Shown here piece after piece: positions 475 through 20,103 of a stretch of DNA of 20,935 bases. Under the pieces are notes generated by a model that was not told the origin of the DNA, did no database searches, and saw nothing but the letters and a program-made list of their open reading frames with translations. Position 1 is the first letter of the stretch. Each line of letters opens with the position of its first letter. Source of the stretch: Calditrichia bacterium (GTDB taxonomy: Bacteria; Calditrichota; Calditrichia; RBG-13-44-9); assembly GCA_037381445.1 (NCBI GenBank), contig JARRQT010000188.1, positions 1 through 20,935 of the forward strand, written 5' to 3'. The position numbers and the translations under genes are program-made.

Positions 475-1839
<1,365 letters not shown>

Positions 1840-2420: not shown

Positions 2421-5378
2421 ATGAATCTGGCATCTGATTTTGAAGTTCAATTCAGCGGCTTTCATGACCTCATGAAGTTCCGGGTGCGTGAAATACTTCT
2501 GGTTTCCAGCCTCTACGACGCATTTGTGCTGGAAGAAGACGGCCGCCTGGCGGAAAGAATTTTCAGTGAATATCTCGATCTCAACCTTCATTTTATCCCC
2601 CGCATTTATAAAGTGTCCACAGCAGAGGAAGCGCTCAGGGCGCTGCAAAATCAGTCGTTCGACCTAGTCATCACCATGGCCCGTATCTCCGATATGAATC
2701 CCATCGAATTCGGACAGCGGGTCAAGGAAATGGATCCCGAAAAGCCGGTGGTCCTGCTCACTTACGACGTCATCGATCCCGTTCTTCTGGAGAAGATCCG
2801 CGAAGTGAAAAGCATCGATAAAGTATTTTACTGGTCCGGAGAATCAAAGATACTGCTGGCAATCATAAAATATGTGGAAGATTTAAAGAATGTGCCGTAT
2901 GATGCGCCCGCCGGTGTGCAGGTGATCCTGATTATCGAAGACTCGCCAAAATTCTATTCTCTTTTTCTGCCCTACATCTATACCGAAATCATGACCCAGA
3001 CCCGCCTGCTGATATCCGACGGCGTAAATGATCTGCACCGGATGCTGCGGATGCGTGCCCGTCCCAAAATTCTGATGGCAGAGTCCCTGGAGGATGGTTT
3101 AAATATTTATGAAGCCTATAAACATAATCTTCTGGGAATCATTTCCGATGTGCGGTTCCCCAATCAGGGTGTGCTGGACGCACAGGCGGGATTACTATTG
3201 GCGGAGAAAGTAAAATCCGAGGTCTCGGATCTTCCCATTTTGCTGCAGTCCTCCGACGACAAAGCCAGGCAGCGGGCGGAACAACTGAATGCCACCTATC
3301 TCAATAAGAGTTCTCCCAATCTGGGCCTGGAATTGAAAAATTTTATCCTGCATAATTTCGGATTCGGGGAATTTATCTTCCGCCATCAGGATGGAACCGA
3401 AATTTGCAGGGCCCGGAACCTGACTGAATTTACCTCGAAGATTCCCACTATTCCCATCGAGAGTCTGGAATATCATGCGCGGCGAAACCATATTTCCATC
3501 TGGCTGAGGGCCAGGACGGAATTCGAACTCGCCGATGAACTGCGCCCCATACAGGTTTCCGACTTTTCCGACGCGGAAGAAATGCGGAATTTCATTTTGA
3601 AGGCACTGCAGAGGCGTATCGATCAGCTCCAATTGGGCGTTATAAAGGATTTTGGCTCCTCCCAATATTACGCGGACAACACCTTTATCCGCATCGGAAG
3701 CGGATCCCTGGGCGGGAAAGGCCGCGGACTCGCTTTTATAAATGCCCTGCTCGCCAATAGTGCCGCCTTCGGGAAATTCCCGGATATTGACATCAAAACG
3801 CCGCAAACCTTTGTCCTGGGAACTGAAGTTTTCGAAGAATTCATGGAAATGAATAATCTGCAGGAGTTTGCTGTCAATTGCCGGGACGAAGAGAAAATCG
3901 CCGCACGGTTTCTGGACGGTAAATTTCCTGCAAACATTACTCATGATCTCTTCGCGCTGCTGGAGAAAATCAGCTATCCGCTGGCTGTCCGTTCCTCCAG
4001 TTTGCTGGAAGATTCCCAGCTCCTGCCGTTCGCCGGGATGTACAAAACCTATATGATACCCAACAATCATGTGGATCTTCGCGTGAGAGCCGGGCAGCTT
4101 CTGGATGCGATCAGGCTGGTATATGCTTCCGTCTACTTTCAGAATCCGAAAGAATATGTCAAAAACTCTGGGTTCCGGATAGAGGAAGAAAAAATGGCGG
4201 TCATCATCCAGCAGGTTGCGGGCGTCCATTACGGGCAGTCATTTTATCCTGTCATATCGGGTGTGGCGCAATCCTATAATTTTTATCCCATATCTCACAT
4301 GAAGCCCGAGGATGGAATCGTGCATCTGGCCATGGGTTTGGGAAAGATCATCACGGACGGCGAACAGATTTACCGGTTCTCGCCGGCCTATCCGCAGATG
4401 AATCTACCCTACAGTTCCGCACTGGAGTATGTGAAGAATTCCCAATCCAGCTACTTGACGCTGGATATTGGCAAACCGGGCCTGAAAGTACAGCTGGATG
4501 AAAATTTCAGCCTGAAGAAGCTGGAGATATCCAAAGCTGAAAATGACGGCACCCTCTTTTTCATCGGAAGCAGCTATTCACCGGAAGACGGACGGATTCA
4601 GGATTCGCTTCACATAAGCGGCCCGCGAGTTATTACTTTTGCCAACATCCTAAAATACAACATATTTCCCCTGTCGGACCTGCTGCAGAATCTGTTGTCC
4701 CTGGGAAAAACCGCATTCGGCACCCATGTGGAGATTGAATTCGCCATCAATTTGTACAAAAAGAACAGAAAAAAACCGGAATTCTATATTCTGCAAATCC
4801 GCCCCATGATTGCAGGTAATGAAAATTATGAGGTGTCGGTGGATTCTATGGATCCTCGTACTTCCCTTTGCTTCTCCAATCACGCCATTGGAAACGGCAT
4901 ATTCCGTAATATCTTTGATCTGATTTACGTCAAGCCGGAGGATTTCGATATCTCAAAAAGCGACCGGATTGCCATGGAGCTGGATGAACTGAACCAGTCG
5001 CTGGATGAAGAGCAGCGGAACTATATTTTGCTGGGATTCGGCCGCTGGGGCACCGCCGATCCGTGGCTGGGAATCCCGGTGGAATGGCACAATATTTCGC
5101 AGGCCAAGGTGCTGATCGAGACCAGCCTGGGCGATTTCAATATCGAGCCGTCATCCGGAAGCCATTTTTTCCACAACCTGATTTCCCTTCGCCTGGGATA
5201 TTTTTCAATCCGGAAGATGGGCGAGACTGAACACATTTCCTGGGACTGGATCCGCCGGCAGCCGGCCTATCGCGAAACGAAATTCCTGCGGCATTTGCGT
5301 TTTGAACACCCCTTTGTGGTGAAAATCGACGGAAGGACCTCCACCGGTCTGATACTAAAACCCAATGGGCAGATATAA
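2421..5378 (+). CDS. Receiver-domain protein fused to a PEP synthase/PPDK-like ATP-grasp domain (pseudo-REC + REC + DUF5752-like + PPDK_N + HFF domain)
   Basis: REC motifs VILIIED...IISDVRFP...LLQSS...LNK. PPDK_N motifs GSLGGKGRGL, LAVRSSSLLED, FAGMY, MAVIIQQV, GLGK, EIEFA, LQIRP. C-terminal GRWG and SSGSHFFHN. Confidence 0.9.
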   Translation: MNLASDFEVQFSGFHDLMKFRVREILLVSSLYDAFVLEEDGRLAERIFSEYLDLNLHFIPRIYKVSTAEEALRALQNQSFDLVITMARISDMNPIEFGQRVKEMDPEKPVVLLTYDVIDPVLLEKIREVKSIDKVFYWSGESKILLAIIKYVEDLKNVPYDAPAGVQVILIIEDSPKFYSLFLPYIYTEIMTQTRLLISDGVNDLHRMLRMRARPKILMAESLEDGLNIYEAYKHNLLGIISDVRFPNQGVLDAQAGLLLAEKVKSEVSDLPILLQSSDDKARQRAEQLNATYLNKSSPNLGLELKNFILHNFGFGEFIFRHQDGTEICRARNLTEFTSKIPTIPIESLEYHARRNHISIWLRARTEFELADELRPIQVSDFSDAEEMRNFILKALQRRIDQLQLGVIKDFGSSQYYADNTFIRIGSGSLGGKGRGLAFINALLANSAAFGKFPDIDIKTPQTFVLGTEVFEEFMEMNNLQEFAVNCRDEEKIAARFLDGKFPANITHDLFALLEKISYPLAVRSSSLLEDSQLLPFAGMYKTYMIPNNHVDLRVRAGQLLDAIRLVYASVYFQNPKEYVKNSGFRIEEEKMAVIIQQVAGVHYGQSFYPVISGVAQSYNFYPISHMKPEDGIVHLAMGLGKIITDGEQIYRFSPAYPQMNLPYSSALEYVKNSQSSYLTLDIGKPGLKVQLDENFSLKKLEISKAENDGTLFFIGSSYSPEDGRIQDSLHISGPRVITFANILKYNIFPLSDLLQNLLSLGKTAFGTHVEIEFAINLYKKNRKKPEFYILQIRPMIAGNENYEVSVDSMDPRTSLCFSNHAIGNGIFRNIFDLIYVKPEDFDISKSDRIAMELDELNQSLDEEQRNYILLGFGRWGTADPWLGIPVEWHNISQAKVLIETSLGDFNIEPSSGSHFFHNLISLRLGYFSIRKMGETEHISWDWIRRQPAYRETKFLRHLRFEHPFVVKIDGRTSTGLILKPNGQI

Positions 5379-5485
5379 CCTGCCCGGCGAACAAATAGAT
5401 CCTGAACATGTTCCAATCAAAAAGAAAATATCATATAATTTATCTTACAGATTCCAACATTCGTTATCCGGGGATTTTTTGAAAC

Positions 5486-6294
5486 GTGCCTGAATGCTTT
5501 TTTGTATCCGATTTGCACGGCCATACAGACCGCTATGATAAACTGTTTAAGGCCATTTCGGGAGAACCTCCCGCTGCCATTTTTCTGGGGGGCGATCTGC
5601 TGCCCCACGACGGCAAACTGAAGCAAGCCATGAGTCTTTCCCACCGGGATTTTGTAAATGATTATCTGGCCGAAAATTTCAGGAAACTGCGAGGGCAATT
5701 GGGGGAAGCGTATCCATCTGTTTTCTTAATACTGGGGAATGACGATGCACGCTATCAGGAGGCGGCGATACTTGCCGCGGCCGGCGAAGGAATCTGGAGC
5801 TACATCCATAATCGTAAAATTAATTTTCGGGAATATGAGGTCTATGGTTATGCCATGGTTCCGCCCACCCCCTTCCGCCTGAAGGACTGGGAACGCTATG
5901 ATGTGTCCCGTTTTGTGGATCCGGGCTGCATCTCCCCCGAATCGGGATGGTACACGGTGCCTGTTTCGGAAAATATCTGATAAACTCCATATTTCTTTTT
6001 CATACCCCGCCCTACCAGACTGCACTGGACCGGGCGGCGCTGGACGGAAAAATGATCGATTATGCGCCGCTGGATGTGCATGTGGGAAGTATTGCCGTGA
6101 AGCGATTTATTGTAGGCCGCCAGCCGCTCATCACCCTGCACGGGCATGTGCATGAATCCGCCAGGATCACCGGCAAGTGGCAGGAAAAAATCGGAAGGAC
6201 ATATGCCTTTTCCGCAGCCCATGACGGTCCCGAGCTTGCCCTGGTGAAATTCGATCCGGAACACCCGGAGAAAGCCCGCCGGGAACTGCTCTGA
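5486..6294 (+). pseudogene. Calcineurin-like metallophosphoesterase split by a frameshift (ORFs 5486-5980 and 5947-6294)
   Basis: SDLHG, GGDL and GNDD lie in the first frame; LFHTPP and HGHVH lie in the -1 frame. Together they make one complete motif set. GTG start. Confidence 0.85.
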
Positions 6295-6295
6295 G

Positions 6296-9200
6296 TTATT
6301 TCACCTCATTTTTCAGCGGCAGCGGCCGGGCCGGATCTGTGATTGCACCGATCTTGAGCGCAAAACTTTGCTTTTGACGAATATCTTCATCGGTTACCAG
6401 ATGCACATCGAGTAACCCATCGCTTTTATATCCCGTGCGCTGGTAATTCATTTCCGCCAGGCAGTGGCTCCAGCCATCCAGCCACAATAAGAGATCAGCC
6501 CGTTGGTCTTCGGTTCCGTCAAAATGGATCAGAATATCAATATCGCTGCCCGGGCCGGCCGTAGCATTCTTGGTGCTGCCAAAGATATAAAATCCCTTCA
6601 CGCCAAACCGGTCGGGATCAATTTGTGAAGCGATCCGGGTGGCCATTTGCAGGCGCCAGCGCCAGAACTCTTCTCCGGTTTTTCTCTTCATGGAGTAGGA
6701 TTCTTCGGGATACATATCAACAGGGGAAGAGGGCGATGCCAGCACGCCCAAGGCCTCGTCCAAATCCGCATTCATGAGAATACGGAGCACATAGCCATTG
6801 GTGCTTTTGGGAACATCGATCACCCGCACGTACTCCGAGAGATGGGAAAATTCAGGTGCGATATCCGCCAGAATATTCGGGGACTTCAGCAGAAATCTTT
6901 CATTAAAGATGATTCCCTCTTCATCCGGATAAAGCGGCAGATACCGGATGGCCGATTCCACCAGATCCTGGAAAAAATGGGTGCCGAAAGAGAGATCGGG
7001 CGTATAATTTCCTTTTTTGCGGGCGATTTCAATCAGAACAGCAGTATTATTAATATCGGAATATGTGACGCATACGCCCAGTTTGATATCGCCCCGGCTG
7101 CCCCATCGTCCCGGCCCCATTAAAACAAATTGACGTTTGGGAAGGATTTTATTCAATTTTCCGATGGTTCTCCCGATTTCCCGGAGTTCTTCCAGACTCG
7201 TAATATTAGAATATGCCTCAGGATCGACATAGGCAATGTGCGTGATGTCGGGCGAGCGGCCATTGGAAATATATTTGTTCGCGGTGAAAAGAATCCGGTC
7301 CTCAGGAATATCCCTTGGAATGGGGGCTGCCACCGCATCTTTTGAAAAGCTCTGCGGGCGGCATTGCAGGAGATAAAAATTCTGGCCGTCGTGGGCAAAT
7401 TCAATATCCACCGGATATCCCAGCTTTGACTGCAGCAGGTCAAGTATGGCTTTCAACTGCTTTACGAAGGAATCCTGACTGACCAGTCCTTCAAAAGTCA
7501 CCACCAGATCCTCTTTCTGAAAATCTATTTGCATCCCGAACGGCTTTCTCAGGTGGTGGTCTTCCGCAACGGACACTATCCTATTAATCTTGGGATATTC
7601 TTCGCCGTATTCACGCAGTAAATCACTGACATCCACAGTTTCAAAACTATTGGTTTCAAGATTAATGATATCGATCTGCTTTGGCGAATATCTCACTATT
7701 TCTTCGGGAGTCACATTGACGCGAAGGCCCGGCTGACCGGGTGCGATAAGAATGGGATAATCGTCGCTTAATCGATCGACGGCGCGGGTTCCCAGTCCGG
7801 GCACCAGCCGCAGCAGACCATCTTCGCGCTTAATCCGCGGCGACCAGCGGAATTCATTGTTGCTGAAAGCCACGCCGGCAAAGGCGGGAAGGAAATATTT
7901 CCCGACCTGTTTTCCAACCACTTCCTGGATGAGAATGCCCATCTCCTCGTGAAAATCCAGCAGCTTTCGTTCGGCGCGGTATTCAATGGGATCGGGGCTG
8001 AAGGTAGATGAATAGACTTCTGCAATGGCGTCCAGCAGCGCCTCCAGCCGCTCTTCCTTGGTCCCCTGATTGGCCAGGAACAGGCTTTTATACTTGCCCG
8101 AAAAAGCTGATCCCAGGCGGTCTTCCAATAAACTTGAGCTCCTCACGATCAGCGGCTTATCCCCCAGATCATCCAGCACCACCGAGAGCCCTTTAACGAT
8201 TTCCGGCGGAAAATGGGAATTGATAAACACCTGCACGATGTGCGGATATTCTTGCCGGATCTGCCCGATATCCTTATATTTCTGCTCAATGACTTCTTCA
8301 AGGTTGTTATAATGAAGGAAGCTGAGAAGGCCGTCCGAAGTGATATACCATGTGCGGGGTGTTTTCACATCACACACTGACGGACATTCTTCAACAGATT
8401 TTCTGATGATCTGGTAAGCCAGAAAGAGCCCGGCGCTTTTGCCCCCCAGTTTTCCGTGGCTTCCCGTGGGATAAATCATGCGCTGTAAAAGATTATAAAA
8501 TTCGGACACGTCAACATAGTTCTTGGCGATATTGATAAAATCCAGCTGATCGGTAAAGAATCTGCGGATCAGCGACACATTCAATGTCTTTTTGGTCGAT
8601 TCGGACAATTCAAGACCTTCGGGTGCCAGATGATAAAAACGCATAATGGCATCGCAAATTTCAGTCAGGGAAGTATCCTGGTTTTCCAGTGCCCGCATCA
8701 GAAAGCTGGATTTGTCCTCCTGGATCCATTTCTGTATCATGGAAAGAATTTCTTTATCGCTCAGATGTTCGGCGGCAATTTCGAATATTTTATCCCCTAA
8801 TTGTAGCGTATTGTCCACAAAAGTTTTCTGAAGCGGACGATTTGCTTCCCCAAAGATATCCGGCTCTTCGTTCCTCCGGTCCCCTCCAAAATATTGCATT
8901 AATTCCTGGGCCGATTTCACACCGTGCCATGAAAGGTAATTCATCATTTTGCGGGAAATCCGCACGTACAGGTTGTGATCGGTACGTTGCAGCAGGTCAA
9001 GAATGACCCTCCATTCCCCTTTATGGTTTTCGCTGACATCTTCCCGCACTGTCTGCCATTCCCGGAAAGTTGTTTTCAGGTTTCGGTACAACAAAAAATG
9101 CCCCAGCCGTTCCGCAATGGTGTTGATCAATCTCCGTTCTTCCTTGAGAAAGGGACCTTCGTCAGCCGTGGGACGCTCTTCAGTATAATACACCTCCACA

Positions 9201-9487
9201 ACGCCCACAGCCCTGTCCTGAACTTCTATGGAAGCTTTCTGCACCCATTTTGTCTTCGGGAATTTCATTGAGCGGTAAACAGAGTTGCCATAGCGGATAA
9301 TGACCTGACAGACATCGGGATACTGCCAGCCCTGCGGGATAACATTCACAAGTGAATGGAAAATTTCATCCATGGATGCATCAGGATTATTCAATACCTC
9401 CTCAATCCCGTAGAGGCAATTCAGCTCCTTTGCCCTTTCCTTCAGGGATTCCAGCAAAATTTCTACTGATTTGTTTTCAATTTTCAT
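6296..9487 (-). CDS. PEP synthase/PPDK-like ATP-grasp protein with an N-terminal GAF-like sensor and a C-terminal nucleotidyltransferase domain
   Basis: N-terminal ERAKELNCLY...GWQYP...GPFLKEE (a sensor segment I recognise from histidine kinases). Core GKLGGKSAGL, LIVRSSSLLED, FSGKY, GLGT, DIEFA, LQCRP, GRWG, SFGTHFFQD. C-terminal FGS...SDIDIL...LLDVH. Confidence 0.9.
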   Translation of the reverse strand: MKIENKSVEILLESLKERAKELNCLYGIEEVLNNPDASMDEIFHSLVNVIPQGWQYPDVCQVIIRYGNSVYRSMKFPKTKWVQKASIEVQDRAVGVVEVYYTEERPTADEGPFLKEERRLINTIAERLGHFLLYRNLKTTFREWQTVREDVSENHKGEWRVILDLLQRTDHNLYVRISRKMMNYLSWHGVKSAQELMQYFGGDRRNEEPDIFGEANRPLQKTFVDNTLQLGDKIFEIAAEHLSDKEILSMIQKWIQEDKSSFLMRALENQDTSLTEICDAIMRFYHLAPEGLELSESTKKTLNVSLIRRFFTDQLDFINIAKNYVDVSEFYNLLQRMIYPTGSHGKLGGKSAGLFLAYQIIRKSVEECPSVCDVKTPRTWYITSDGLLSFLHYNNLEEVIEQKYKDIGQIRQEYPHIVQVFINSHFPPEIVKGLSVVLDDLGDKPLIVRSSSLLEDRLGSAFSGKYKSLFLANQGTKEERLEALLDAIAEVYSSTFSPDPIEYRAERKLLDFHEEMGILIQEVVGKQVGKYFLPAFAGVAFSNNEFRWSPRIKREDGLLRLVPGLGTRAVDRLSDDYPILIAPGQPGLRVNVTPEEIVRYSPKQIDIINLETNSFETVDVSDLLREYGEEYPKINRIVSVAEDHHLRKPFGMQIDFQKEDLVVTFEGLVSQDSFVKQLKAILDLLQSKLGYPVDIEFAHDGQNFYLLQCRPQSFSKDAVAAPIPRDIPEDRILFTANKYISNGRSPDITHIAYVDPEAYSNITSLEELREIGRTIGKLNKILPKRQFVLMGPGRWGSRGDIKLGVCVTYSDINNTAVLIEIARKKGNYTPDLSFGTHFFQDLVESAIRYLPLYPDEEGIIFNERFLLKSPNILADIAPEFSHLSEYVRVIDVPKSTNGYVLRILMNADLDEALGVLASPSSPVDMYPEESYSMKRKTGEEFWRWRLQMATRIASQIDPDRFGVKGFYIFGSTKNATAGPGSDIDILIHFDGTEDQRADLLLWLDGWSHCLAEMNYQRTGYKSDGLLDVHLVTDEDIRQKQSFALKIGAITDPARPLPLKNEVK

Positions 9488-11244
9488 TTTAAAATCACTC
9501 CTCTGCCTGATCTTCCATCCACTTTTACCTGCAAGGGTGAGGCGAGTTTCACGTGTTTGGTATAGATTAATTCATTGACCACACGCTGCCGGTTGAGCCA
9601 CTGCCAATCGATTTCATATTTTCCGGAGTGCCGGACGGAAAAATAGAGTACCTTAAAACTGGTTATGTTGTGAAAAAAATGAGAACCCTGGCTCAAATCG
9701 ACATTGACATGGGGCAAGGTGGCTTCTACAATAACTTTTGCTCCGGAAATCTGTCCCCAGTTTACCGGAATCCCCAGCCATGGGTCCGAACTTCCCCAGC
9801 GGCCAAAGCCGAGTAGCAGGTACGGGATTTCCGAACTCAGCAACTGATTATTTATTCTTTCCAGCTCATCCACCACGACGGCGGAAACCTCCGTTTTAAA
9901 ACTTTCCGGCTTGACATACACCACATCACTGATATGCTCCACAATCCCATTGCCCAGTACATTTTCGGAAGCAACCAAAACATGTTCACTTTCAAGATCA
10001 TCGCGAGAAATTTCAACCTTTTCCTTTGAAACGACCATCGGGCGGACCTGCAAAAATCCGAAACGGGCGGGTACTCCCCTCCTGGCATCGAGAGTGACAG
10101 CAAATTCAATTTCCACCGGTGCAGACACACTCTCGCTGCATATTTTAAGCAGGGATTGAATAATTTCGTTCAAAGGCATCTGACCCATTTGCAGAATGGG
10201 GGCAAAATTTATCAGCTTTGGAGCACTGCCGGCTGCCCCGGGATAGAGCCGGTCAGATTGAGGATCATATGTGGAAGCAATATATTTCAAGGCGCCGGCC
10301 TTTTCTGCTTCTCTCAACGTTAATTTAAGCAGGTATTCCGTTTCCTTTACCGGATCAAAAGCCGGCGGTTTTCCCATATTCACCGCCCAGTAAGAATTCT
10401 GGCTTTCCTTCAGCAGATCCCGGATGGAATTATAGGGCGGATTGGCCCTCGGATAAGCGGGCGAGTAGCTCCATGAAATGCCCTCATCGACGATGGTTCT
10501 GCCCAAGCCCAGGGCCAGGTTAACGATGCCCTCCTCCGGCCGGGCATTACCTGCCGGGTAAAAATTATAAGACCGTGCCACACCTGATATGGTCGGGTAG
10601 TAGTGATCGTCAAAGCGCTGTCCAACCACCTCCTGAATGATGACAGCCATTTTTTCGTCTTCAATCCGGTGACGGGTCGCCTTGAAATAATTTTTGGCGG
10701 CCCTGAAAAAAGTCGAGGCATATACGTATTTGATTGCTTCCACCAGCTTATGAAACCGGCCCTCGGTATCAAACTGGTTGTTAGGCGTCATCTTGGTCCC
10801 ATAGATACCCGCAAAAGGTTCGTAGAGCGCATCTTCCAGCAAACTGGAAGAACGAATGGCCAGTGGAGAATGCACTTTGGAGATAAGCGCCCACAGATCG
10901 CCCACCAGTTTCGCGGGCAGTTCGGTATTTTGAAATGCGTGCGAGATGCGGTTATCAGGCAGATCGGAAAGCGCAATTTCATACAGATTATTTAGTTTCA
11001 TGAATTCATCAAAAAATTCCGTGGTAATTACCGTCATGGTTGGAATCGAAACAGAAATACCCGGAAAGTCCGCATGGTTAAACTGCTCACGAAGGATGTC
11101 CCGGATGAACACCAATCCCTGCGCTTTTCCCCCCAGTGATCCGGAACCGATGAACGTAAAATTTTCATCCGAATCGAAAAATTTACGCTCAAAGCGGGAC
11201 GGTCCCTGGGTTGCACTATGGCTGTTTTTTTCTGTTCGTGTCAT
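9484..11244 (-). CDS. Stand-alone PEP synthase/PPDK-like ATP-grasp protein with HFF domain
   Basis: GSLGGKAQGL, LAIRSSSLLED, FAGIY, MAVIIQEV, GLGR, EIEFA, LQVRP, GRWG, SQGSHFFHN. ATGA overlap (9484-9487) with the next gene. Confidence 0.9.
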   Translation of the reverse strand: MTRTEKNSHSATQGPSRFERKFFDSDENFTFIGSGSLGGKAQGLVFIRDILREQFNHADFPGISVSIPTMTVITTEFFDEFMKLNNLYEIALSDLPDNRISHAFQNTELPAKLVGDLWALISKVHSPLAIRSSSLLEDALYEPFAGIYGTKMTPNNQFDTEGRFHKLVEAIKYVYASTFFRAAKNYFKATRHRIEDEKMAVIIQEVVGQRFDDHYYPTISGVARSYNFYPAGNARPEEGIVNLALGLGRTIVDEGISWSYSPAYPRANPPYNSIRDLLKESQNSYWAVNMGKPPAFDPVKETEYLLKLTLREAEKAGALKYIASTYDPQSDRLYPGAAGSAPKLINFAPILQMGQMPLNEIIQSLLKICSESVSAPVEIEFAVTLDARRGVPARFGFLQVRPMVVSKEKVEISRDDLESEHVLVASENVLGNGIVEHISDVVYVKPESFKTEVSAVVVDELERINNQLLSSEIPYLLLGFGRWGSSDPWLGIPVNWGQISGAKVIVEATLPHVNVDLSQGSHFFHNITSFKVLYFSVRHSGKYEIDWQWLNRQRVVNELIYTKHVKLASPLQVKVDGRSGRGVILK

Positions 11245-11443: not shown

Positions 11444-12730
11444 TTACACCCATCCCCGGTCTCTGCAGGCCTGGGCGACGCGGCTGATGGCAATGACATA
11501 AGCGGCATCTCTCATGAATAATTTCCGTTTGCGTGCTGTTTCACTGACCGCCAAATACGCTGCCGTCATTTTGACATCCAGTTTGCCCAGCACTTCATCC
11601 TTCTCCCAGAAATAATTCATATTGCTCTGCACCTGTTCAAAGTAGCTGCAGGTAACGCCGCCTGCATTGGCCAGGAAATCAGGAATCAGGAAAATACCGC
11701 GTTCGTCAATCACCTTATCGGCTTCGGGCGTTGTGGGACCGTTTGCGCCTTCAGCAATAATTTTGACCCTTTTGCTGATTTTATTGACATTATCGCCAGT
11801 GATCTGATTCTCAATGGCGGCAGGAATTAAAATGTCCACATCCTGCTCCAGCCATGCCTCACCGGGAAGAACTTCGTAACCCAATTCCCGGGCTTTCCCT
11901 TTGTCGATACCGCCGAATTTATCGGTGATCTTTCTGAGTTCTTCCAACTTTACGCCGGATTTCTTCAGGAATGTATAGGAAGTCTGATCATGCTGATCCC
12001 AACTGGAAACGCAGATCACCTTGCCGCCCAATTGCTCGTACAGCTCGATGGCATACTGGGCTACATTGCCAAATCCCTGCACGCTGGCAACGGTTTCCTC
12101 GGGACGAAGTCCCAGTTCCTTCAATGCTTCGCGCACCGTGAAAATAACGCCATAACCGGTCGCTTCCGTACGGCCGAGAGAACCGCCCATACCCACGGGT
12201 TTTCCAGTGATAAAACCGGGATATTGTCCGCCGTGAATCGCTTCAAATTCATCCCGCATCCAGAGCATATGCTGCGCATTTGTCATCACATCGGGAGCGG
12301 GGACATCGTTTACCGGACCGACATTTTTGGCAACCTGGCGTACCCAACCGCGGCAGATCTGCTCCTGTTCGTGCATACTTAGATTGTGGGGATCGCAAAC
12401 CACACCGCCTTTGCTTCCGCCCAGCGGAATGTCCACAACTGCGCATTTCCAGGTCATCCAGGTCGCCAGTGCCTTGACGGTATCAACTGTCTCCTGGGGA
12501 TGGAATCGGATGCCGCCTTTTCCCGGTCCGCGTGAATCATTATGCTGCACTCTAAAGCCTCTAAACACTTTCATGCTTCCATCATCCAGACGAACCGGAA
12601 TACTGAAATGGTATTCCCGTAAAGGATTCCTTAATAAATCGCGTGTAGCGGTGTCCAGATCCAGAATATCGGCAACCCGATCGAATTGTGCCTGCGCCAT
12701 TTCAAATGGATTAAAAGCTTTGTTACCCAT
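11444..12730 (-). CDS. gdh: Glu/Leu/Phe/Val-family dehydrogenase, most likely an NAD(P)-dependent glutamate dehydrogenase of the RocG/GudB/Thermotoga-like subfamily
   Basis: GPGKGGIRFHP, MTWKCAVVDIPLGGSKGG, DVPAPDV, ITGKP, GRTEATGYG, QGFGNVA, EGANGP, PDFLANAGGV. Start placed at ATG 12730 (MGNKAFNPF) because AAGGAAAGGG lies just upstream; the ORF track starts at 12784. Confidence 0.93.
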   Translation of the reverse strand: MGNKAFNPFEMAQAQFDRVADILDLDTATRDLLRNPLREYHFSIPVRLDDGSMKVFRGFRVQHNDSRGPGKGGIRFHPQETVDTVKALATWMTWKCAVVDIPLGGSKGGVVCDPHNLSMHEQEQICRGWVRQVAKNVGPVNDVPAPDVMTNAQHMLWMRDEFEAIHGGQYPGFITGKPVGMGGSLGRTEATGYGVIFTVREALKELGLRPEETVASVQGFGNVAQYAIELYEQLGGKVICVSSWDQHDQTSYTFLKKSGVKLEELRKITDKFGGIDKGKARELGYEVLPGEAWLEQDVDILIPAAIENQITGDNVNKISKRVKIIAEGANGPTTPEADKVIDERGIFLIPDFLANAGGVTCSYFEQVQSNMNYFWEKDEVLGKLDVKMTAAYLAVSETARKRKLFMRDAAYVIAISRVAQACRDRGWV

Positions 12731-13303
12731 AGGTTTTACCCTTTCCTTAAAAAATGACTGTTTTTGTTTTACTAAAACATGCACGGTACTTAAGCAATAT
12801 TATGACAAATTTCAATATTTTTTTAACATTCATAACAGCGCCAAATCCAGCCGTGCATAACATTTTTTATAGTGTCACACAATTTTCTGTCTTTCGGTTT
12901 CTGACTCGAACTATATTTTAATTCAAATCAAATTATCAAAAGCAACTTAATTTTGTGACATTTTTAATTTATAATTTTAGCTAATTAAAAAAAAAATAAT
13001 TTTATAATATATTGTTAAAAATTATGAAATTCTTCCAACAGGATAAATTACATATTTCACATGTAAATTCGGCTAAACATTTTGCTTAATCCGTAAAATT
13101 TGGTTTTTGCGAAAAAGAATATTTTCAAAAAGATAAAAATTCGGGATTAACATTTCTTTTCGAGACATTTATACAAAAAACTATACAAAAAGACAGGGAA
13201 CTTGCAGGGAATGTATCCTGACAGAGATTTATAAATTTAAAATGACGGATTTATTTCAATTATCTGTCCCAAAAGGTTCTGAGCAATCATTTTATCGCTC
13301 ACT

Positions 13304-13951
13304 TTATGCCACTCCCTGGGACCTGAATTTCGCATCCGCTAGTTTCTTCAATTTATTGTATAATGCACCTGTCTGTTTTTCAAGGGCTTTCAGGTCGCGG
13401 TTATTCTGAACGACAAAATCAGCCCACTTGATTTTATCTTCAATGGGAATCTGCTTTTTTATGCGGTCGACAATTTCCTTTTCAGACAATTTATCCCGCT
13501 GTTTAATTCTCTCAATCCGTAATCCCATGCGGGAGGCCACAACCACAATGGCGTCAAACATATGTTCCAGGCTAAGCTCGTAGATCAGTGCTGCATCCAC
13601 AGCGATAATTGAATACTCACCGGATTCCCGTGCTTCTTCAATCAGGTCGAGGATGCGGGCAACCATTTGGGGATGGACAATTTTATTCAGCCGATTCGTT
13701 TTTGCTTCATCGGAAAATGCGATATTGGCAAGCAGTTTTCTGTTAAGTTTGCCATTCCGGTAAAAAATATTCCTGCCAAAAGCTTTTCTTAATTCCTTTT
13801 TGATTTCTTCATTATTCTCGACCTCCTGCTTTGCCACCATATCAGCGTTGATCACCTTTATACCCATTTTTTCCAGAAAATTGCAGACGGTAGATTGACC
13901 GCATCCCATACCGCCGGTGACCGCTACCACTATTGAATTTTTATAAATCAT
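13304..13951 (-). CDS. coaE: Dephospho-CoA kinase (atypical Walker A)
   Basis: VAVTGGMGCGQSTV, INADMVA, LNRKLLANIAFSD, LNKIVHP, DAALIYE, ADFVVQN. GGAGG RBS upstream. Confidence 0.92.
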   Translation of the reverse strand: MIYKNSIVVAVTGGMGCGQSTVCNFLEKMGIKVINADMVAKQEVENNEEIKKELRKAFGRNIFYRNGKLNRKLLANIAFSDEAKTNRLNKIVHPQMVARILDLIEEARESGEYSIIAVDAALIYELSLEHMFDAIVVVASRMGLRIERIKQRDKLSEKEIVDRIKKQIPIEDKIKWADFVVQNNRDLKALEKQTGALYNKLKKLADAKFRSQGVA

Positions 13952-13962
13952 CTGCCTGCCTC

Positions 13963-16900
13963 CTATCTCAAAACGACAAATTTACCCAACTTCTTCTGAT
14001 TCCGGTATTTTGCGAGAAATATATACACTCCACTGGATACCTTTTCATTAACCCCATTCTTTAAATCCCAACGGATGCCTCCGTTCTGAACCTGATCTTC
14101 GAGCCGGGCCACCTGCTGCCCATTCACCGTATATATAAAAATTTCGCAACCATCGGGCAGGTTTCCAAACATAATTTCATTTTTGCCTTCCGAAACACGA
14201 AACGGATTAGGGTAAACAACGATATCAGCCAAAGATTCAACTTCACCTTCGACCAGATATCGGTTAGCCCAATTCGATGGAATGATCTGGCCGTAGGCGT
14301 CCTTCAATCCCGAAATTTCAAGATAGTATTTAATACCGAGGCTCCCCATGCGGTTTTTCCCCGACAGATAAAGGTGGACAATGCTGCCATCAAGGGAATC
14401 CAGACTGGCCTTGATCACCCGGCCGTCCGGGATAAGCCGGTAATTATCGAAATTTTCAATACTCTTTCTATCCATGAAGTGATTGAACCTCAACAGGAGC
14501 CGTCTTTTGGAAACAAATTCCACCTTTTTCAAATAGGGACTTTCAGGAGTAACGGGCTGGTCAAAATTGATGCGCAGCGTATCACTGCAGAATGGTACAC
14601 CATATTTATTGCGCAGATTGCCAAAAACCAGTTGGTGATTGCCGGGCGGAAAGGCTTTTAAGAATCCCAGCAGAATCTGTTCTTTTCCCTTTCCCCTGAT
14701 GGCACTGATTGGCCGGATTGAATCCGGAAGCAGAAGATACAAATCATTCTGAAATGACTGGTCACCCAGCGGCTCGGAAAAATGCAGCATTATCTGATGG
14801 GCATCCTCTACGGTAAGCCCCTCAAAAGCAGGCGGATTGGATGCGCTCACTTCAATCTCATTTCCCGGTGCGCTCAGCGTATCCGGAAATGACATATCTA
14901 CGGTCCGGACAAAATATGAATAGAGAACATTTGATGAAACCATTGTATCACAGAAAGTTGTGTGAGAAGTTTGAAATTCGCGGATCGAGCCCGTATCCTT
15001 CTGTGTCCGGCCAATCAGGTAAGAATCTGCTCCGCTTACCGTTTGCCAGGATAAAATTATATGGCCCGTGTCAGCCTCCTCAGTCTGCAGCGCGGCGGGC
15101 GGCAATGGCCTTTTTCCCTCCTCTGTTTTCTGCCATACCGCGAAAGATGCATCTCCGGCCAGTATGAAATGATTTCCATCCAGGAGCGGCACGGCACTGC
15201 AGTTCACACCCTGATAATACCAACTCACCTGATATTGGTGGTCCTGGTAATTTATAAAATATGCTTTGGGATAAGGGGTAAAGAAGAGCTCGTCCGCCCG
15301 GTCACCATCGTAATCGGCTGCTGTCAAACCACTATAAGTATTTTTCTGATTCGAGACACCGTGGAAGTTTTGCTGCCAGATGGTTTGCAGGGAGTTATCT
15401 CCATCGGATTTCAGGATGCTCAGATTCCAATACTGCTGATCAACAGCGGACTCGGCCTCGTAATCCGCTCTGACCTGGGTAGCAATGGCCAGCTCCTGCA
15501 GATTGTCTCCGTCAAAATCGCCCAGTGCAAAACAGCTCGTGGCATCTGCGCCGGGCAGTCTCTTCTGAAAAACGGGCTCAAAGCTGCCGGAGGTATTCTC
15601 TTCATAGACAATCAGATCGCCGTCATAGTCGCCGATGATAATTTCCCTCTTCTGGTCACCATCCAGATCCGCCATTTCAGCGAAGGGGATTCCATAATTG
15701 TTGTCGCCCTTAGTGGGATTTTCCAGCGTCTGAAGCTCCCTTACCGAAAATGTTTCCGGATTATCCAGCCGGTAGATATGCCACTTGTTCTGATGCAACG
15801 CCAGTATGTTAACGGCGTGATCGACACCGGTATAATACATCCGGGAGCCCCAGAAATCATTTAGAGGACATTGAACAGGGGGAGAAGTAAATCCCGGGAG
15901 GCTTCTGCCCGGAAACAGGTATGAGATACCGCCATATCCGGCCAGGATTTCCGGCAGGGAATCTCCGTCGGTGTCCAATACATCGCGTGGGAAAGCCGGC
16001 ATGGGCCCCACCTGCCGTTCGAGAGCGCCGTCAACATAAGTTATCAGTGAGATGCGCGGTTCCGGAAAATCCGGCCAATTCGCATTGGCGATGATTTCCC
16101 GGATTCCGTCCCGGTTAATATCTACTGTTTTAGGATAAAAATAGCCTGTGCCCCGCTCTTCGGTCATTTTCTGAAAATCCCCGGTAAAAGTGTTATCCTG
16201 AGCTAAATCCAGTTGATAAAAAGCATGGGAATTATCAGCTTCGGTAGTCAGCCCGGACGGATTGATCAATTTGAAATAGTACTCGATATCACCCGATATT
16301 TCTTTGTGGGACAATAAAAAAATGTGCTCATTATTAAAATAGCCGGAAGTGCAGGATTGCCAATCGGCCGAAGTCCCTAACGGCCTATAGTGCAGGGTTG
16401 CAATGGTTTTATCATCTGTTTTCAATTCCAAAAGATAGCCGCTATAGTTGTCGAAAATCATGGGAATGACTTTCAGCGAATCCACAGTAGGCGCACTGCG
16501 GTCCAGATAGACAATCGCGCGTTGAACAATATCGCTCAAATCCTTATTGATCAGCTTCAGTTCGAGGGTATATACGGTATCGGGCAGCCCGGATAAATTC
16601 CACCATCCCAGGGTATCAGCCACAATATGATCCGTACTCTCATGAAATGGAATCATTTTATCAGGAGCTTCCCCGGTACCGTAGGACAGAACGTAATGAT
16701 CCATATCCGGAGCGGTGGCGGTGCCGATAATTGGTTCGGAATCCTGGCAAATCCCGCCTTGCGTCGAAGGGGAAATCAGATTAGCAACGCCTCCGAATTC
16801 CGATGTGAGGCTGTTTTCAACATTCACGAGGCCCTGTCCGAAATATTTGTCCCATCCCGCTGCCCCCAGATCTGTGCAGCCCGCCAGCAATTGAGATTTT

Positions 16901-17826
16901 ATTTCCCCGGCATCCGCCTGCAGGTCATGCGACCACAGCAGGCCCAGTGCGCCGCTCACCAGCGGCGCCGAGAAACTGGTCCCGTTCATTTCGCCATACT
17001 GATTTCCGGGAACCGGTGAAAGAATATCCTGTCCCGGCGCCACCAGATCGATTTTCGAACCATAGCTGGAAAATGAAGCCAGTCTGTCGGTTTGTTCTGT
17101 GGCCCCTACCGAAATAGTTTCATCATAAGCGGCAGGATATTGGAGAACATCATTCCCTGAATTTCCGGCGGACACCACAAACAATGCGCCCATTTTTGTG
17201 CCGAAATCCACCGCATCTTTAATGAGGTGGGAATAGACAATATCTCCGAAACTCATGTTGATGATCCTGCACCCGTTCCGGATGGCATACACCACAGCCT
17301 CGGCAATATCATCCTCCTCCAGGTAGCCGGATGCCGTGCCCGCGCGCAGCGCCATCACTCTCACCGCCGGGGCGACGCCGGAAATTCCCGAAAAGTTATC
17401 GGCTTCTGCTGCAATCAATCCCGCAACCGCCGTTCCGTGCCCGCCAGGATATTCATCCATAGGGTCATTATCCGGCTCCAGGTAGTCTCCAGTGTCGGGG
17501 AAATCAGGCGCATCGGTAAAATCCCATCCGATGACGTCATCGATGTAGCCGTTGCCGTCATCATCAATATTGTTCAGATCGCCGGCATCCAGCCGACCGT
17601 TATGATTCAGGTCTTCCCCACTATTGATCCACAACTGGTTTCTCAGGTCGGGATGCTCGTAATCAATCCCTGTGTCAATCACTCCCACTATCACCTGCGC
17701 AGAACCCTTCTCAATATTCCAGGCCTGTTCCATCCCGATTTTTTTCATGGCCCATTGGCGTCCATAAAGCGAGTCATTGGGAACGTAATGGATTTTATAG
17801 CGGTAATTGGGTTCTGCCCATTCCAC
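13963..17826 (-). CDS. S8 (subtilisin-family) serine peptidase with FG-GAP repeats, an Fn3-like domain, probable Ig-like domains and a Por/FlgD-type C-terminal domain; true 5' end uncertain
   Basis: Catalytic VIDTG, GHGTAVAG and GTSFSAP, plus oxyanion SAGN. Five DxxxDxxxE-type repeats. C-terminal YPNPF...IYTVNG...WDLKN...SSGVY. Frame remains open upstream to 17985. Confidence 0.9.
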   Translation of the reverse strand: MEWAEPNYRYKIHYVPNDSLYGRQWAMKKIGMEQAWNIEKGSAQVIVGVIDTGIDYEHPDLRNQLWINSGEDLNHNGRLDAGDLNNIDDDGNGYIDDVIGWDFTDAPDFPDTGDYLEPDNDPMDEYPGGHGTAVAGLIAAEADNFSGISGVAPAVRVMALRAGTASGYLEEDDIAEAVVYAIRNGCRIINMSFGDIVYSHLIKDAVDFGTKMGALFVVSAGNSGNDVLQYPAAYDETISVGATEQTDRLASFSSYGSKIDLVAPGQDILSPVPGNQYGEMNGTSFSAPLVSGALGLLWSHDLQADAGEIKSQLLAGCTDLGAAGWDKYFGQGLVNVENSLTSEFGGVANLISPSTQGGICQDSEPIIGTATAPDMDHYVLSYGTGEAPDKMIPFHESTDHIVADTLGWWNLSGLPDTVYTLELKLINKDLSDIVQRAIVYLDRSAPTVDSLKVIPMIFDNYSGYLLELKTDDKTIATLHYRPLGTSADWQSCTSGYFNNEHIFLLSHKEISGDIEYYFKLINPSGLTTEADNSHAFYQLDLAQDNTFTGDFQKMTEERGTGYFYPKTVDINRDGIREIIANANWPDFPEPRISLITYVDGALERQVGPMPAFPRDVLDTDGDSLPEILAGYGGISYLFPGRSLPGFTSPPVQCPLNDFWGSRMYYTGVDHAVNILALHQNKWHIYRLDNPETFSVRELQTLENPTKGDNNYGIPFAEMADLDGDQKREIIIGDYDGDLIVYEENTSGSFEPVFQKRLPGADATSCFALGDFDGDNLQELAIATQVRADYEAESAVDQQYWNLSILKSDGDNSLQTIWQQNFHGVSNQKNTYSGLTAADYDGDRADELFFTPYPKAYFINYQDHQYQVSWYYQGVNCSAVPLLDGNHFILAGDASFAVWQKTEEGKRPLPPAALQTEEADTGHIILSWQTVSGADSYLIGRTQKDTGSIREFQTSHTTFCDTMVSSNVLYSYFVRTVDMSFPDTLSAPGNEIEVSASNPPAFEGLTVEDAHQIMLHFSEPLGDQSFQNDLYLLLPDSIRPISAIRGKGKEQILLGFLKAFPPGNHQLVFGNLRNKYGVPFCSDTLRINFDQPVTPESPYLKKVEFVSKRRLLLRFNHFMDRKSIENFDNYRLIPDGRVIKASLDSLDGSIVHLYLSGKNRMGSLGIKYYLEISGLKDAYGQIIPSNWANRYLVEGEVESLADIVVYPNPFRVSEGKNEIMFGNLPDGCEIFIYTVNGQQVARLEDQVQNGGIRWDLKNGVNEKVSSGVYIFLAKYRNQKKLGKFVVLR

Positions 17827-17989
17827 TGCTTCATCGGAATTCAGTTGATTAACGAAATCCTCAATGTCCGCGGAAGAATCTGTTTTGAGAAGATAATAGT
17901 CATCAGATTGCGATATCCCGGTTGTTTGCTGGTGCTTGAAAAGAATGTCGAACGCGGATGGCCATCGACCGGCCCCTGGAGGGAATCAT

Positions 17990-18016
17990 AAAATAAAAGA
18001 AGGGGCAAAAGCCCCT
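17990..18016 (-). terminator. Rho-independent terminator downstream of the TPR gene
   Basis: Minus strand AGGGGC-TTTT-GCCCCT-TCTTTTATTTT. Confidence 0.75.
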
Positions 18017-18108
18017 GTTTGAATGTTTGTCTTTACACCGCACCCGTAAGAACCAAAAATTATATTAATTTTATAAAATAGAGTATCTGTTTCCAGTGAA
18101 AGAAAGAA

Positions 18109-19530
18109 TCAGGGTTTGTCTTTCGGAGAAGATTTCTGTTTGTCAATAATAACCTGGAGGTCCTCTATTTTCCGGCCATAACGGGGATTCTCAGGATCCT
18201 TCTCCAGCAACTGTTTGAAGACGTCAATGGCTTCTTCAAAACGCCCCTGGGCAATGTAGATCTCACCAAGGGTCGGAGACAAGATCGGCGGGCGGCTGGA
18301 ACGTGAACCCTCCGGTTGTTGTGGCACCTCAGTCTCAGGTTCTTCCGCTTCTTCTTCCGGCGCTGCTTCTTCCGCTTCCTCTGTTTCAGGGAGAAAATCG
18401 GGTTCATCCGGTTCCTTCCGGGCGCTGATTTCCTTTTCTTCCATTTCCGTTTCGACATCCTCAGATTCCGGTGTTTCGGAGATGGTGTCTCTCAGAATGT
18501 ATTCCTGTTCGGACTCATCCCCCAATTCTTCCGGCGCTTCCTGCAGTTCTTCAGATTCTTCCAGCTCATGTTCCTCCTCCAGCAGTTCCTCGTCCTCACT
18601 CTCAACCTCGTTTTCCCTTTCAGATATCAAATCGGATACAACCGCACTGAAATCCATCGGCTCTTCCTCAATAAACTCTTCCGGGAATTCCTTTTCCTCA
18701 AGCTCCGTGCCTTCCTCCGTTTCGGCCTCATCCAATTCCATAAGTTCGCTTCCATCCTCCGATTCTGCAGCGGCTTCTTCATCAGAAGATTCTTCCTCTT
18801 TTTCATATTCTTTGAAAAATGAATCAAAGGCATTCGAAAACTCATCCCGGTCCAGAATCGTCTCTTCACCCAGCGTATCTTCTTTTGGCTGCGCCTCCGG
18901 TTCTTCCGAGACATCGGGTTCGGGCTCACTTTTATCTTCCTTCTTGGAGACGTCTTCCATTGTTTCTTTAAAAACCTCATCCAGGGTTTTCTGAAAGTCA
19001 GTATCTTCCTCGGGGATTCCGGTGCTGTCGAGTAGATTTTCGATTTCTTCTTCACTTAAATCTTCCACTTCTGCCCCGGTCTGCTCTTCAAATTCCACAG
19101 GTTCTGTTTCGGGTGCAGGGGCATGTTGTACAAGGTCTTCACCGAAAAACCTCTCGCCGGCCTCATGGTTGAATATGTCGTTTAGATATGCCCTCAGGTA
19201 GTCTTCCTTTGCCAGTGTCATTAAGTTCAGATGCTCATTAATCTCCCCCAGTAGTTTCCATGCCTTCGGGGCGGCCGGATCAAGGGCCAGGGAAATTTCC
19301 AACTCATGTTTGGCGTCGGAATAATTTTTCATATGATAGTTCGCCAAACCAAGGATATAATGGCCGAATGGAAAAGCAGGATTCTTTTGCAAGCCAGCCT
19401 GGCATATTTCAGCCGCCCGCTCATATTCTCCCTTTTCCAGTAGTCGCGAGGAATAAACTGCAAAAATAACGGAAGTTGGATTGGACTCATAGAAATTTTC
19501 AAGTTTCTTTAAATCCAGAAAATGGGCCAT
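18109..19530 (-). CDS. Tetratricopeptide-repeat protein with a long acidic low-complexity linker
   Basis: N-terminal TPR-like helices (GHYILGLANY, AWKLLGEI), an E/D-rich middle, and a C-terminal TPR (SPTLGEIYIAQGRFEEAIDVFKQLL). Confidence 0.85.
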   Translation of the reverse strand: MAHFLDLKKLENFYESNPTSVIFAVYSSRLLEKGEYERAAEICQAGLQKNPAFPFGHYILGLANYHMKNYSDAKHELEISLALDPAAPKAWKLLGEINEHLNLMTLAKEDYLRAYLNDIFNHEAGERFFGEDLVQHAPAPETEPVEFEEQTGAEVEDLSEEEIENLLDSTGIPEEDTDFQKTLDEVFKETMEDVSKKEDKSEPEPDVSEEPEAQPKEDTLGEETILDRDEFSNAFDSFFKEYEKEEESSDEEAAAESEDGSELMELDEAETEEGTELEEKEFPEEFIEEEPMDFSAVVSDLISERENEVESEDEELLEEEHELEESEELQEAPEELGDESEQEYILRDTISETPESEDVETEMEEKEISARKEPDEPDFLPETEEAEEAAPEEEAEEPETEVPQQPEGSRSSRPPILSPTLGEIYIAQGRFEEAIDVFKQLLEKDPENPRYGRKIEDLQVIIDKQKSSPKDKP

Positions 19531-19602
19531 CTTTTCCCCTTTGAAATTATTTTGTCAGTCTTGTATAATTTATAACAGATGGATTTAAATTAAAAACATT
19601 TT

Positions 19603-20103
19603 TTACCATGCTGCAATGGTATTATTGATAATATCATCAACAATCTGATCAATGTCATCGGATATGGCCGTATCGATGTCAGTCCGGAGTGCTGCCCCCG
19701 GGATAACACTAAATCTGGAAAGTGTGCTGCCCCACAATGGTTTATTGATATGGGTATTCAAACATTCTGCTTTAATATTCACAACCATCTGATATTCCTG
19801 AACCTGCTCCTGCTGCGTGATGCTGACCGGTCTGCGATCGATAGATGTGATAGCACCGCTAAGCACCAGATCCGCATCTTTCTCGTTGTTTATGACCGTC
19901 AGTGAATTGTCTTTGATAAATGCTTCGGTCACTTTCTGCATAAATTCCTGCTGGACGCCCGGGTAGGCGGTCTCATTTTCAAAATCCGCGATATAGATTG
20001 TTTTCAGATATGAAGGCAGCGCTCCCTTGAATGAATAACGCACGCACGAAAATGACCATGAAAGTGCCAGCAGTAGGATAATAAAAAATTTATTGAATGT
20101 CAT
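19603..20103 (-). CDS. lptE: LptE-family LPS-assembly lipoprotein
   Basis: Signal peptide ending in SFS-C, then [25 protein letters not shown] and a C-terminal W. Position after the sigma54 activator matches the gene order I recall in FCB-group genomes. Confidence 0.75.

Follow-up and report, generated by a model that had tools for sequence, protein, structure and literature searches.

Barrel-less relatives of PEP synthase encoded beside glutamate dehydrogenase genes: a widespread family that may control glutamate dehydrogenase

A stretch of 20,935 nucleotides from a Calditrichia bacterium (contig JARRQT010000188.1 of assembly GCA_037381445.1, the whole of which is referred to below as the window) encodes three proteins, here called A, B and C, that are paralogues of one widespread and undescribed family which derives from phosphoenolpyruvate (PEP) synthase and has no pyruvate barrel. 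Since the barrel has been lost, the ATP site and a predicted phosphohistidine domain have been kept, and genes for glutamate dehydrogenase (GDH) lie adjacent in many bacteria, the family is likely to be a kinase switch for GDH. We consider it highly probable that phospho-His forms on these proteins, and fairly probable that the family regulates GDH by some means; that this regulation works specifically by phosphotransfer from the swivel His to GDH is the best explanation we can offer, and it is offered tentatively.

Three paralogues without a pyruvate barrel

2421..5378, plus strand: paralogue A, 985 aa, with a pseudo-receiver, an intact receiver, DUF5752, a PPDK_N ATP-grasp and the His domain
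4830..5375, plus strand: His domain of A; H915 is codon 5163-5165, in SSGSHFFHN
6296..9487, minus strand: paralogue B, 1063 aa, with a GAF-like N-terminus (a lead only), a helical region, PPDK_N, the His domain and a C-terminal nucleotidyltransferase
6716..7315, minus strand: His domain of B; H837 is codon 6977-6979, in SFGTHFFQD
9484..11244, minus strand: paralogue C, 586 aa, nothing but ATP-grasp and His domain
9487..10017, minus strand: His domain of C, residues 410-586; H522 is codon 9679-9681, in SQGSHFFHN; swivel fold predicted (AlphaFold2, VIA-align)

The initial annotation of this cluster had placed the three His codons exactly and was right about the GRWG motif (which is at residue 874 in A, 793 in B and 481 in C), whilst its span of 3679..11244 covered the His domains but cut off the receivers of A and left two flanking GDH genes outside. 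It had also described a domain of about 190 aa in each protein after the LQxRP motif, which is found at residue 791 of A, 707 of B and 398 of C; this holds for A (190 residues after the motif) and C (184), but the tail of B is 352 residues long and includes a nucleotidyltransferase domain (Pfam) that had gone unmentioned and that makes up the extra length, so that a barrel still does not fit.

The canonical phospho-His motif of PEP synthase and PPDK is GGxTSHAA. A motif search found no GGxTSH in A, B or C, and GGxTSHAA is found in the genome's own PPDK. The sole Pfam match in the core common to the three is PPDK_N (122-204 bits against a cut-off of 27); neither PEP-utilizers nor PEP-utilizers_C matches any of them, and against the NCBIfam models for PEP synthase, RPH and PigC all three score below 55 bits, where the cut-offs are 501-1700. 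The earlier claim that there is no GGxTSHAA and no space for a PEP/pyruvate barrel is therefore borne out, there being no motif, no Pfam barrel match and tails that are too short, and pyruvate cannot be bound in cis by A, B or C.

The pair GRWG...SxG[ST]HFF occurs in exactly 3 of the 13,633 open reading frames of at least 60 aa in the genome, namely A, B and C. Elsewhere in the same genome there are a complete PPDK, an EI and two RPH/PigC-like proteins, each with a canonical His motif. The latter two dikinases lie at 10829-13297 of contig C164 and 18929-21349 of contig C36, the gene on C164 sitting within a polysaccharide/glycosyltransferase gene cluster. The stop codon of C overlaps the start codon of B (ATGA) and C-B fusion proteins are found elsewhere (P0121-P0123), therefore C and B probably act together as a pair.

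Predicted fold and conservation of the His domain

The His domain did not resemble any known family at the level of sequence: a Pfam scan of 150 His-domain sequences gave only noise, a profile search of the PDB gave only weak and unrelated matches (best E 0.016), and an Atlas search with the family returned family members only. AlphaFold2 models were made of full-length C (predicted local distance difference test, pLDDT, 93.2) and of its His domain alone (pLDDT 96.4). Residues 17-586 of the full model align with residues 4-465 of PEP synthase 2ols (Z 25.6, root-mean-square deviation (rmsd) 3.9, 363 aligned) and residues 35-586 with residues 17-505 of PPDK 1dik (Z 18.4, rmsd 5.1, 339 aligned), and the rmsd is 14.5 against 2r82, PPDK in its second state. 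We take 1dik to be PPDK with the swivel in the nucleotide-side state, and read the modelled His domain as occupying the nucleotide-side position beside the ATP-grasp, the best structural match of which is 5hv1 (Z 26.4).

When the model of the lone domain was compared with 48,161 chains by VIA-align, the first rank was taken by the phosphoryl-carrier domain of PPDK 2fm4 (Z 7.1, rmsd 3.6, 112 aligned), followed by the swivels of RPH (7.0), maize PPDK (6.7) and a Bacillus pyruvate kinase (6.7), a DRTGG protein (6.7) and two EI chains (5.7), with phospho-His swivels in six of the seven top rows (Z 5.7-7.1). A swivelling beta/beta/alpha fold, like that of the phospho-His domains of PPDK, RPH and EI, is thus predicted for the domain. 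The comparison with the swivels of PPDK, PpsA and RPH that the initial annotation had put forward yielded phospho-His swivels as the closest fold, at a middling Z of about 7.

The candidate catalytic His opens a helix between two strands, in the same order as in the genome's canonical enzymes; the loop before it is about 8 residues longer than in the genome's canonical dikinases, and the domain as a whole is about 60 residues bigger than a canonical swivel. Invariant within the domain are R482, G491, E507, S518 and G520 (C numbering). The His itself had been called invariant, which is nearly exact: it is kept in 466 of 470 distinct domain sequences, the four exceptions having N, R, Q and a gap, in a set that is biased toward the motif because it was collected with motif-containing queries, and among the B homologues H837 is found in 58/58. 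Rare C-like members (L035, L062, P0184) have N, Q or R in place of the His, and the available stretch of the two loci holds neither GDH nor B. The suggestion that G[ST]H marks a divergent phospho-carrier His is favoured by the predicted swivel fold, by the position of the His at the start of a helix and by the retention of the ATP-site residues, but is tempered by a fold match that is middling.

The ATP-grasp active site

In RPH the residues K22, R117 and T136 are required for activity (PMC4844700); statements drawn from this and the other papers cited here concern those sections, tables and supplements of them that were covered. R117 and T136 correspond by alignment to R131 and T150 of C, and K22 corresponds to K40 by the GGK motif. 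In the alignment K40 is conserved in 114/115 rows, R131 in 118/120, T150 in 112/120 (with Ser in a further 6), E380 in 142/143, Q399 in 141/143 and R401 in 137/143, and among the B homologues K350, R449, E696, Q708 and R710 are each present in 57-58 of 58. As the catalytic residues of the ATP-grasp are intact in all three types, A, B and C do not look like pseudo-enzymes, at least as judged from their sequences.

Linkage to glutamate dehydrogenase genes

475..1827, minus strand: gdhA, family I NADP-type glutamate dehydrogenase (NCBIfam PRK09414, 780.7 bits against a cut-off of 536; Pfam ELFV), divergent from A; candidate target
11444..12784, minus strand: gdh2, family II glutamate dehydrogenase (Pfam ELFV), with its likely start at Met19 (about 12730); it leads the gdh2-C-B run and is a candidate target

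The dikinase cluster of the window is bracketed by these two GDH genes, and a similar association recurs well beyond it. In a sample of 79 GTDB loci, which are the best by similarity to C of at least 615 matches and hence not random, GDH is present in 54, and in 34 of the 38 loci that are at least 15 kb long. Where gdh2 is present (42 loci), B is nearly always there too (40), the metallophosphoesterase gene described below is found in 31 of the 79 loci, 30 of which have B, and a gdh2-C-B-phosphoesterase unit without A in the locus occurs in 18. On the scale of whole genomes, a GDH gene and a member are at most 6 kb apart in 29/38 relatives of this genome (weak canonical-dikinase matches and the genome itself being left out) and in 26/56 Bacteroidales genomes having both, where chance would give about 1% by our own arithmetic; fragmented assemblies lower these counts and kin are not independent. 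For the distant KaiC-type subfamily 80 metagenome loci were compared, some near-duplicates among them, and 43 have a GDH. The loci of the named gut Bacteroidales Phocaeicola (L110) and Parabacteroides (L111) have A divergent from one GDH gene and facing a second 3.5-4 kb off; the Prevotella locus (L112) has no GDH.

In a quick tree the GDHs linked to B and C form one group (54/93 rows, many phyla, support 90), and those linked to A-type proteins join family I or other members of family II. The active-site motifs of the linked GDHs, gdh2 included, are normal. In the gdh2 group (alignment A6) C130, H133 and C379 are invariant and H172 nearly so, and an insertion that includes W262 follows the nucleotide-binding strand; these features, which are the group's own, are candidate docking or modification sites. 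Two close relatives have a third GDH gene between gdhA and A (L094:3245-4531 and L095:5158-6438), the orthologue of which is on another contig in this genome (C258:1037-2323). Glutamate-synthase-like subunit genes also recur near KaiC-type members, by eye in 4-5 loci including L148.

No conserved neighbour supplies an acceptor domain, unless it be GDH, the recurrent neighbours being GDH, the phosphoesterase and paralogues. It had been suggested that the acceptor is something other than pyruvate, perhaps a protein; the lack of a barrel agrees with the first part and the GDH linkage, a context absent from that suggestion, would fit a protein acceptor.

Published genetics in gut Bacteroides

The GDH of Bacteroides fragilis is reversibly inactivated by ammonia, and a 1996 report by Baggio and Morrison is said, going by its title alone, to concern a trans-acting factor for GdhA of Bacteroides thetaiotaomicron. 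A gene that may be relevant here is BT1972 of B. thetaiotaomicron, annotated as PEP synthase/PPDK, which random barcode transposon sequencing data place between the GDH gene BT1970 and the NAD-GDH gene BT1973 (PMC8121099). Its only partners at r of at least 0.8 over 523 experiments are korB (0.824) and korA (0.817), the genes of 2-oxoglutarate synthase (PMC8121099, Table S3). For BT1970 the co-fit genes belong to amino-acid biosynthesis, disruption of BT1973 raises fitness under two stresses, and the passages of the main text that were searched make no mention of BT1972 (PMC8121099). The canonical PPDK of B. thetaiotaomicron is a separate gene, BT0644. Subunits of 2-oxoacid:ferredoxin oxidoreductases are encoded near members in 3 of 99 clustered loci (L045, L069, L076), an echo of the KorAB co-fitness.

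In B. fragilis P207 the gene PTOS_003162 (2,970 bp, with PPDK_N and two receiver folds) adjoins gdhA, PTOS_003163 (PMC10197588). In the strongest bile extract the mutants of both are mildly positive (0.39-0.47 for gdhA and 0.04-0.69 for PTOS_003162), and the member is expressed at about 110 reads per kilobase per million mapped reads (RPKM) against about 290 for gdhA, with an induction of about 2-fold against about 19-fold (PMC10197588). Other sources were uninformative: the essential-gene tables of B. fragilis 638R have no rows for GDH or a dikinase, an mSphere supplement has no matches, and the family goes unmentioned in the passages of PMC11304471 that were searched.

Accessory domains and the partner phosphoesterase

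3147..3149, plus strand: D243, the phospho-acceptor position in the second receiver of A, where it is accompanied by E173, D174, S277 and K296; conservation assessed in A homologues
6299..6658, minus strand: minimal nucleotidyltransferase domain of B (NTP_transf_2, E 6.7e-9), with GS, DxD and a third Asp
5486..6294, plus strand: calcineurin-like metallophosphoesterase (Pfam Metallophos), between A and B; the usual partner gene of B

The second receiver of A, in which we take these positions to be the acceptor Asp and its partners, is well conserved (D243 in 128/131 homologues, E173 in 130/131, S277 in 125/131 and K296 in 129/131), and the first is a pseudo-receiver with Met at the acceptor position (M86 in 96/131). 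Only A has a receiver with a phospho-acceptor Asp, B and C having no receiver at all, and none of the three has a Pfam match to HisKA or HATPase_c. The nucleotidyltransferase of B keeps G970/S971 in 47/48, D982 in 48/48, D984 in 47/48 and D1027 in 48/48 of the homologues that bear the domain, and some B proteins are without it (P0191, P0229). A weak Atlas lead (score 0.80, 20% of the cluster) points to a GAF-like N-terminus in B, and other members of the family have, by inspection, several GAF-like repeats or a KaiC/RecA-like domain (a weak PAXNEB match). Bacteroidales often have a second A-type paralogue with 1 to about 5 GAF-like repeats in tandem with a plain one (P0175, P0177 and P0172; L069, L070, L072, L081, L084, L085 and L087). 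The metal motifs of the phosphoesterase are kept in 26-35 of 35 homologues.

Distribution of the family

The homologue search gave at least 8,000 matches, and a three-sequence profile of the His domain gave 2,284 clusters at 50% identity. Members are present in 39/41 genomes around this one, in 58/61 Bacteroidales genomes and also in an archaeon. In a FastTree of 63 cores (at most 14 sampled per type, together with A, B, C, two D-type proteins and two KaiC-type halves, and with a midpoint root only) the B, D and KaiC types are set apart from the A-like proteins, and the receiver-less C clade falls among receiver-bearing lineages. The D-type is a divergent subfamily of 703 aa, with GRTG...SYGTHFY and no nearby GDH (L105:7265-9376, L106:7420-9531, L107). 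Literature searches, the coverage of which left out most subscription papers, theses and some supplements, found no description of the family or of its link to GDH. It is annotated as PEP synthase, which is a misnomer, and metabolic models built on such annotations could be misled.

Proposed mechanism

We propose that these proteins would be signal-gated His autokinases that act on GDH. The ATP-grasp, the catalytic residues of which are plain in the alignments, and the divergent swivel with its near-invariant His, modelled beside it, would together split ATP at the beta-phosphate, with phospho-His, AMP and Pi as the products, as the chemistry of PPDK, RPH and VadK (a barrel-less PPDK that is discussed below) would suggest. 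The target would be GDH at the 2-oxoglutarate/glutamate node, to which gene order and Bacteroides genetics point, and the net effect would be to favour glutamate supply on ammonium media, with an anabolic GDH activated or a catabolic one silenced. Signals may enter via the receiver in A, the GAF-like domain in B and the KaiC-like domain in other members, and C and B would work as a pair, with the metallophosphoesterase removing the mark and the nucleotidyltransferase of B perhaps adding a second.

Taken at its broadest the proposal is of a missing system for the post-translational control of GDH in Bacteroidota and many phyla, in which a dikinase-type kinase with a new swivel His phosphorylates GDH, receiver, GAF and KaiC-like domains serve as sensors, the nucleotidyltransferase as second writer and the phosphoesterase as eraser, and in which BT1972 is the trans-acting factor of 1996; this whole we hold more loosely than phosphotransfer to GDH on its own. 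If it were true, dikinases would also act on proteins, a kind of kinase chemistry for which none of the papers covered demonstrates transfer to a protein target, and BT1972 would be a testable candidate for post-translational GDH control in gut Bacteroides.

A number of observations weigh against this proposal, and the first of these concern the fold. A Z of about 7 is middling, lies within the range that VIA-align calls common and is tied with that of a DRTGG protein; Foldseek with the lone His domain gave nothing at E of 0.001 or below, with PPDK in ranks 5-6 and its probabilities of 0.75 and 0.69 the highest; and hhalign of the domain against a four-sequence swivel profile, which is a thin one, gave a probability of 0.5%. 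The call of a swivel fold therefore rests on the ranking and on the two-domain fit. The sections covered of the VadK study do not show that phosphate passes from VadK to a target (PMC13400623). In this assembly the reading frame of the phosphoesterase shifts near 5975, where about 19 codons are lost (tblastn with four intact homologues gives two frames); either the gene is a pseudogene or the break is an assembly error. There is no nearby GDH in 30/56 Bacteroidales genomes nor at the D-type loci L105 and L106, and the two GDH families linked to dikinases are only about 32% identical, such that a shared metabolite would fit the linkage to both as well as a shared surface does.

The genetic evidence is similarly mixed. 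BT1972 is presumed to be a member of the family from its annotation and gene order, and no B. thetaiotaomicron entry is among the 120 matches listed for the Phocaeicola protein (119 of them at 99-100%); PTOS_003162 is likewise presumed to be a member from its annotation, gene order, length and InterPro domains. Neither GDH is listed as co-fit with BT1972 in the tables covered, and korA has a co-fitness of 0.92 with further biosynthetic genes (PMC8121099); the KorAB co-fitness partly mirrors general amino-acid auxotrophy. In deoxycholate the gdhA mutants of B. fragilis reach +0.80-1.25 (8 values) and the PTOS_003162 mutants stay at -0.11 to +0.08, and PTOS_003162 is non-essential in rich medium (PMC10197588). 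Given that the mutants of the member are unlike those of gdhA, the member is not an obligate activator of the neighbouring GDH. The data from B. thetaiotaomicron and B. fragilis could be reconciled if the regulator had its effect mainly on ammonium media.

Alternative explanations

The alternative that survives best, although we regard it as unlikely, is that the proteins do autophosphorylate without passing the phosphate on: it would remain on the His and serve only to gate the reversible binding of GDH, in an inhibitor or activator complex. An analogue for such gated binding of a GDH-type enzyme is the GudB-GltAB counter-enzyme. The GDH linkage and the Bacteroides genetics are equally compatible with binding and with phosphotransfer, the enlarged domain with its invariant R482, G491, E507, S518 and G520 could form a docking surface, and the authors of the VadK study propose binding, not transfer (PMC13400623). 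However, a conserved phosphoesterase and an intact nucleotidyltransferase beside gdh2 suggest covalent marks that can be removed.

Rather less likely again is that the proteins make up the ATP/His half of a small-molecule dikinase with two components, in the manner of HpeHI, and that GDH supplies the acceptor site, so that 2-oxoglutarate or its carbinolamine is phosphorylated and amination is driven by ATP. Split dikinases do exist (PMC12167813), the linkage to the two GDH families suggests a metabolite in common, and there is the co-fitness with 2-oxoglutarate synthase. The varied sensors (receiver, GAF-like repeats, KaiC-like domain) nevertheless look regulatory and not like parts of a flux enzyme, the B. 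fragilis member is expressed below gdhA and rises far less upon induction (the values being those given above), and the active-site motifs of the linked GDHs are normal.

It is improbable that the swivel His passes its phosphate to the receiver, D243 of A, in cis or in trans from B or C, in what would be a dikinase-powered two-component system. In favour of this, A has an intact second receiver, and by eye the recurrent immediate neighbours in the clustered loci include no histidine kinase. Yet C and B have no receivers and have kept both His and ATP site, from which it follows that the receiver Asp, one of the acceptors suggested earlier, cannot be the general one, even if the conservation of D243 leaves it possible for A. 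Furthermore the C-types nest among receiver-bearing lineages, the gdh2-C-B-phosphoesterase unit does without A in the 18 loci mentioned above, and the receiver has no output domain except the kinase itself.

A shade more improbable is that these proteins serve as pseudo-enzymes or as scaffolds that sense ATP/AMP, the His having a structural role and never taking up phosphate; the loss of the canonical motif, the two Phe that follow the His and the middling fold match would suit such a role, but the near-universal retention of the His and of the catalytic ATP-grasp residues in all three types would not. Finally, that they are split PEP synthases with the pyruvate barrel encoded elsewhere, as the database names imply, is very improbable, as the barrel motif is in 0/447 motif-bearing sequences, no barrel gene is among the recurrent neighbours, and a complete PPDK and EI are encoded elsewhere in this genome, as is a separate PPDK in B. 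thetaiotaomicron.

The remainder of the window

From 13304 to 20914, on the minus strand, there are unrelated genes for a dephospho-CoA kinase, an S8 peptidase with a tail like those of the type IX secretion system, an acidic TPR protein, LptE and a sigma-54 activator that is cut by the contig end. Rfam has no match in the window, sites resembling those of sigma-54 are at chance level (17 against 17.8 expected), and promoter and terminator scans gave no informative signal.

Comparison with known systems

The barrel-less architecture has a precedent in VadK (Rv1127c), a barrel-less PPDK that autophosphorylates His422 and binds the enzymes encoded beside it (PMC13400623), and the concept is therefore not categorically new. 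The two have in common an ATP-grasp and a His domain without a barrel, and the VadK gene adjoins those of the metabolic enzymes that VadK binds and tunes (PMC13400623). They differ, in a comparison made by description only, in that VadK has a canonical-type His motif (taken from a primer), is found in actinomycetes and acts on methylcitrate enzymes (PMC13400623), whereas the present family has an enlarged and divergent swivel (GRWG, SxG[ST]HFF), a partner phosphoesterase, a link to GDH, and fusions to receiver, GAF-like, KaiC-like and nucleotidyltransferase domains.

RPH, PigC/RedH and HpeHI resemble the family in that they include the best structural matches for the ATP-grasp (5hv1), have a terminal His domain and use an acceptor that is not pyruvate. 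Unlike the family they have an acceptor-binding domain of their own, in cis or on HpeH (PMC12167813), where the family would have none unless GDH serves as one. PEP synthase (PpsA) and PPDK share with it PPDK_N, the catalytic residues, the predicted swivel fold and the order of domains; they have the barrel and GGxTSHAA that the family lacks, and the family scores far under the cut-offs of their models.

GlnE and GlnD provide covalent control of nitrogen assimilation, with glutamine synthetase and PII as their targets. There too a nucleotidyltransferase of the Pol-beta type and a candidate eraser are tied to an ammonium-assimilating enzyme, but in the present family the nucleotidyltransferase is minimal and confined to one paralogue (and not to all B proteins), the core is that of a dikinase and the presumed target is GDH. 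On the evidence of its sequences, the family would carry out the same first half-reaction as PPDK and RPH whilst falling outside both the PEP synthase/PPDK and the RPH/HpeHI groups.

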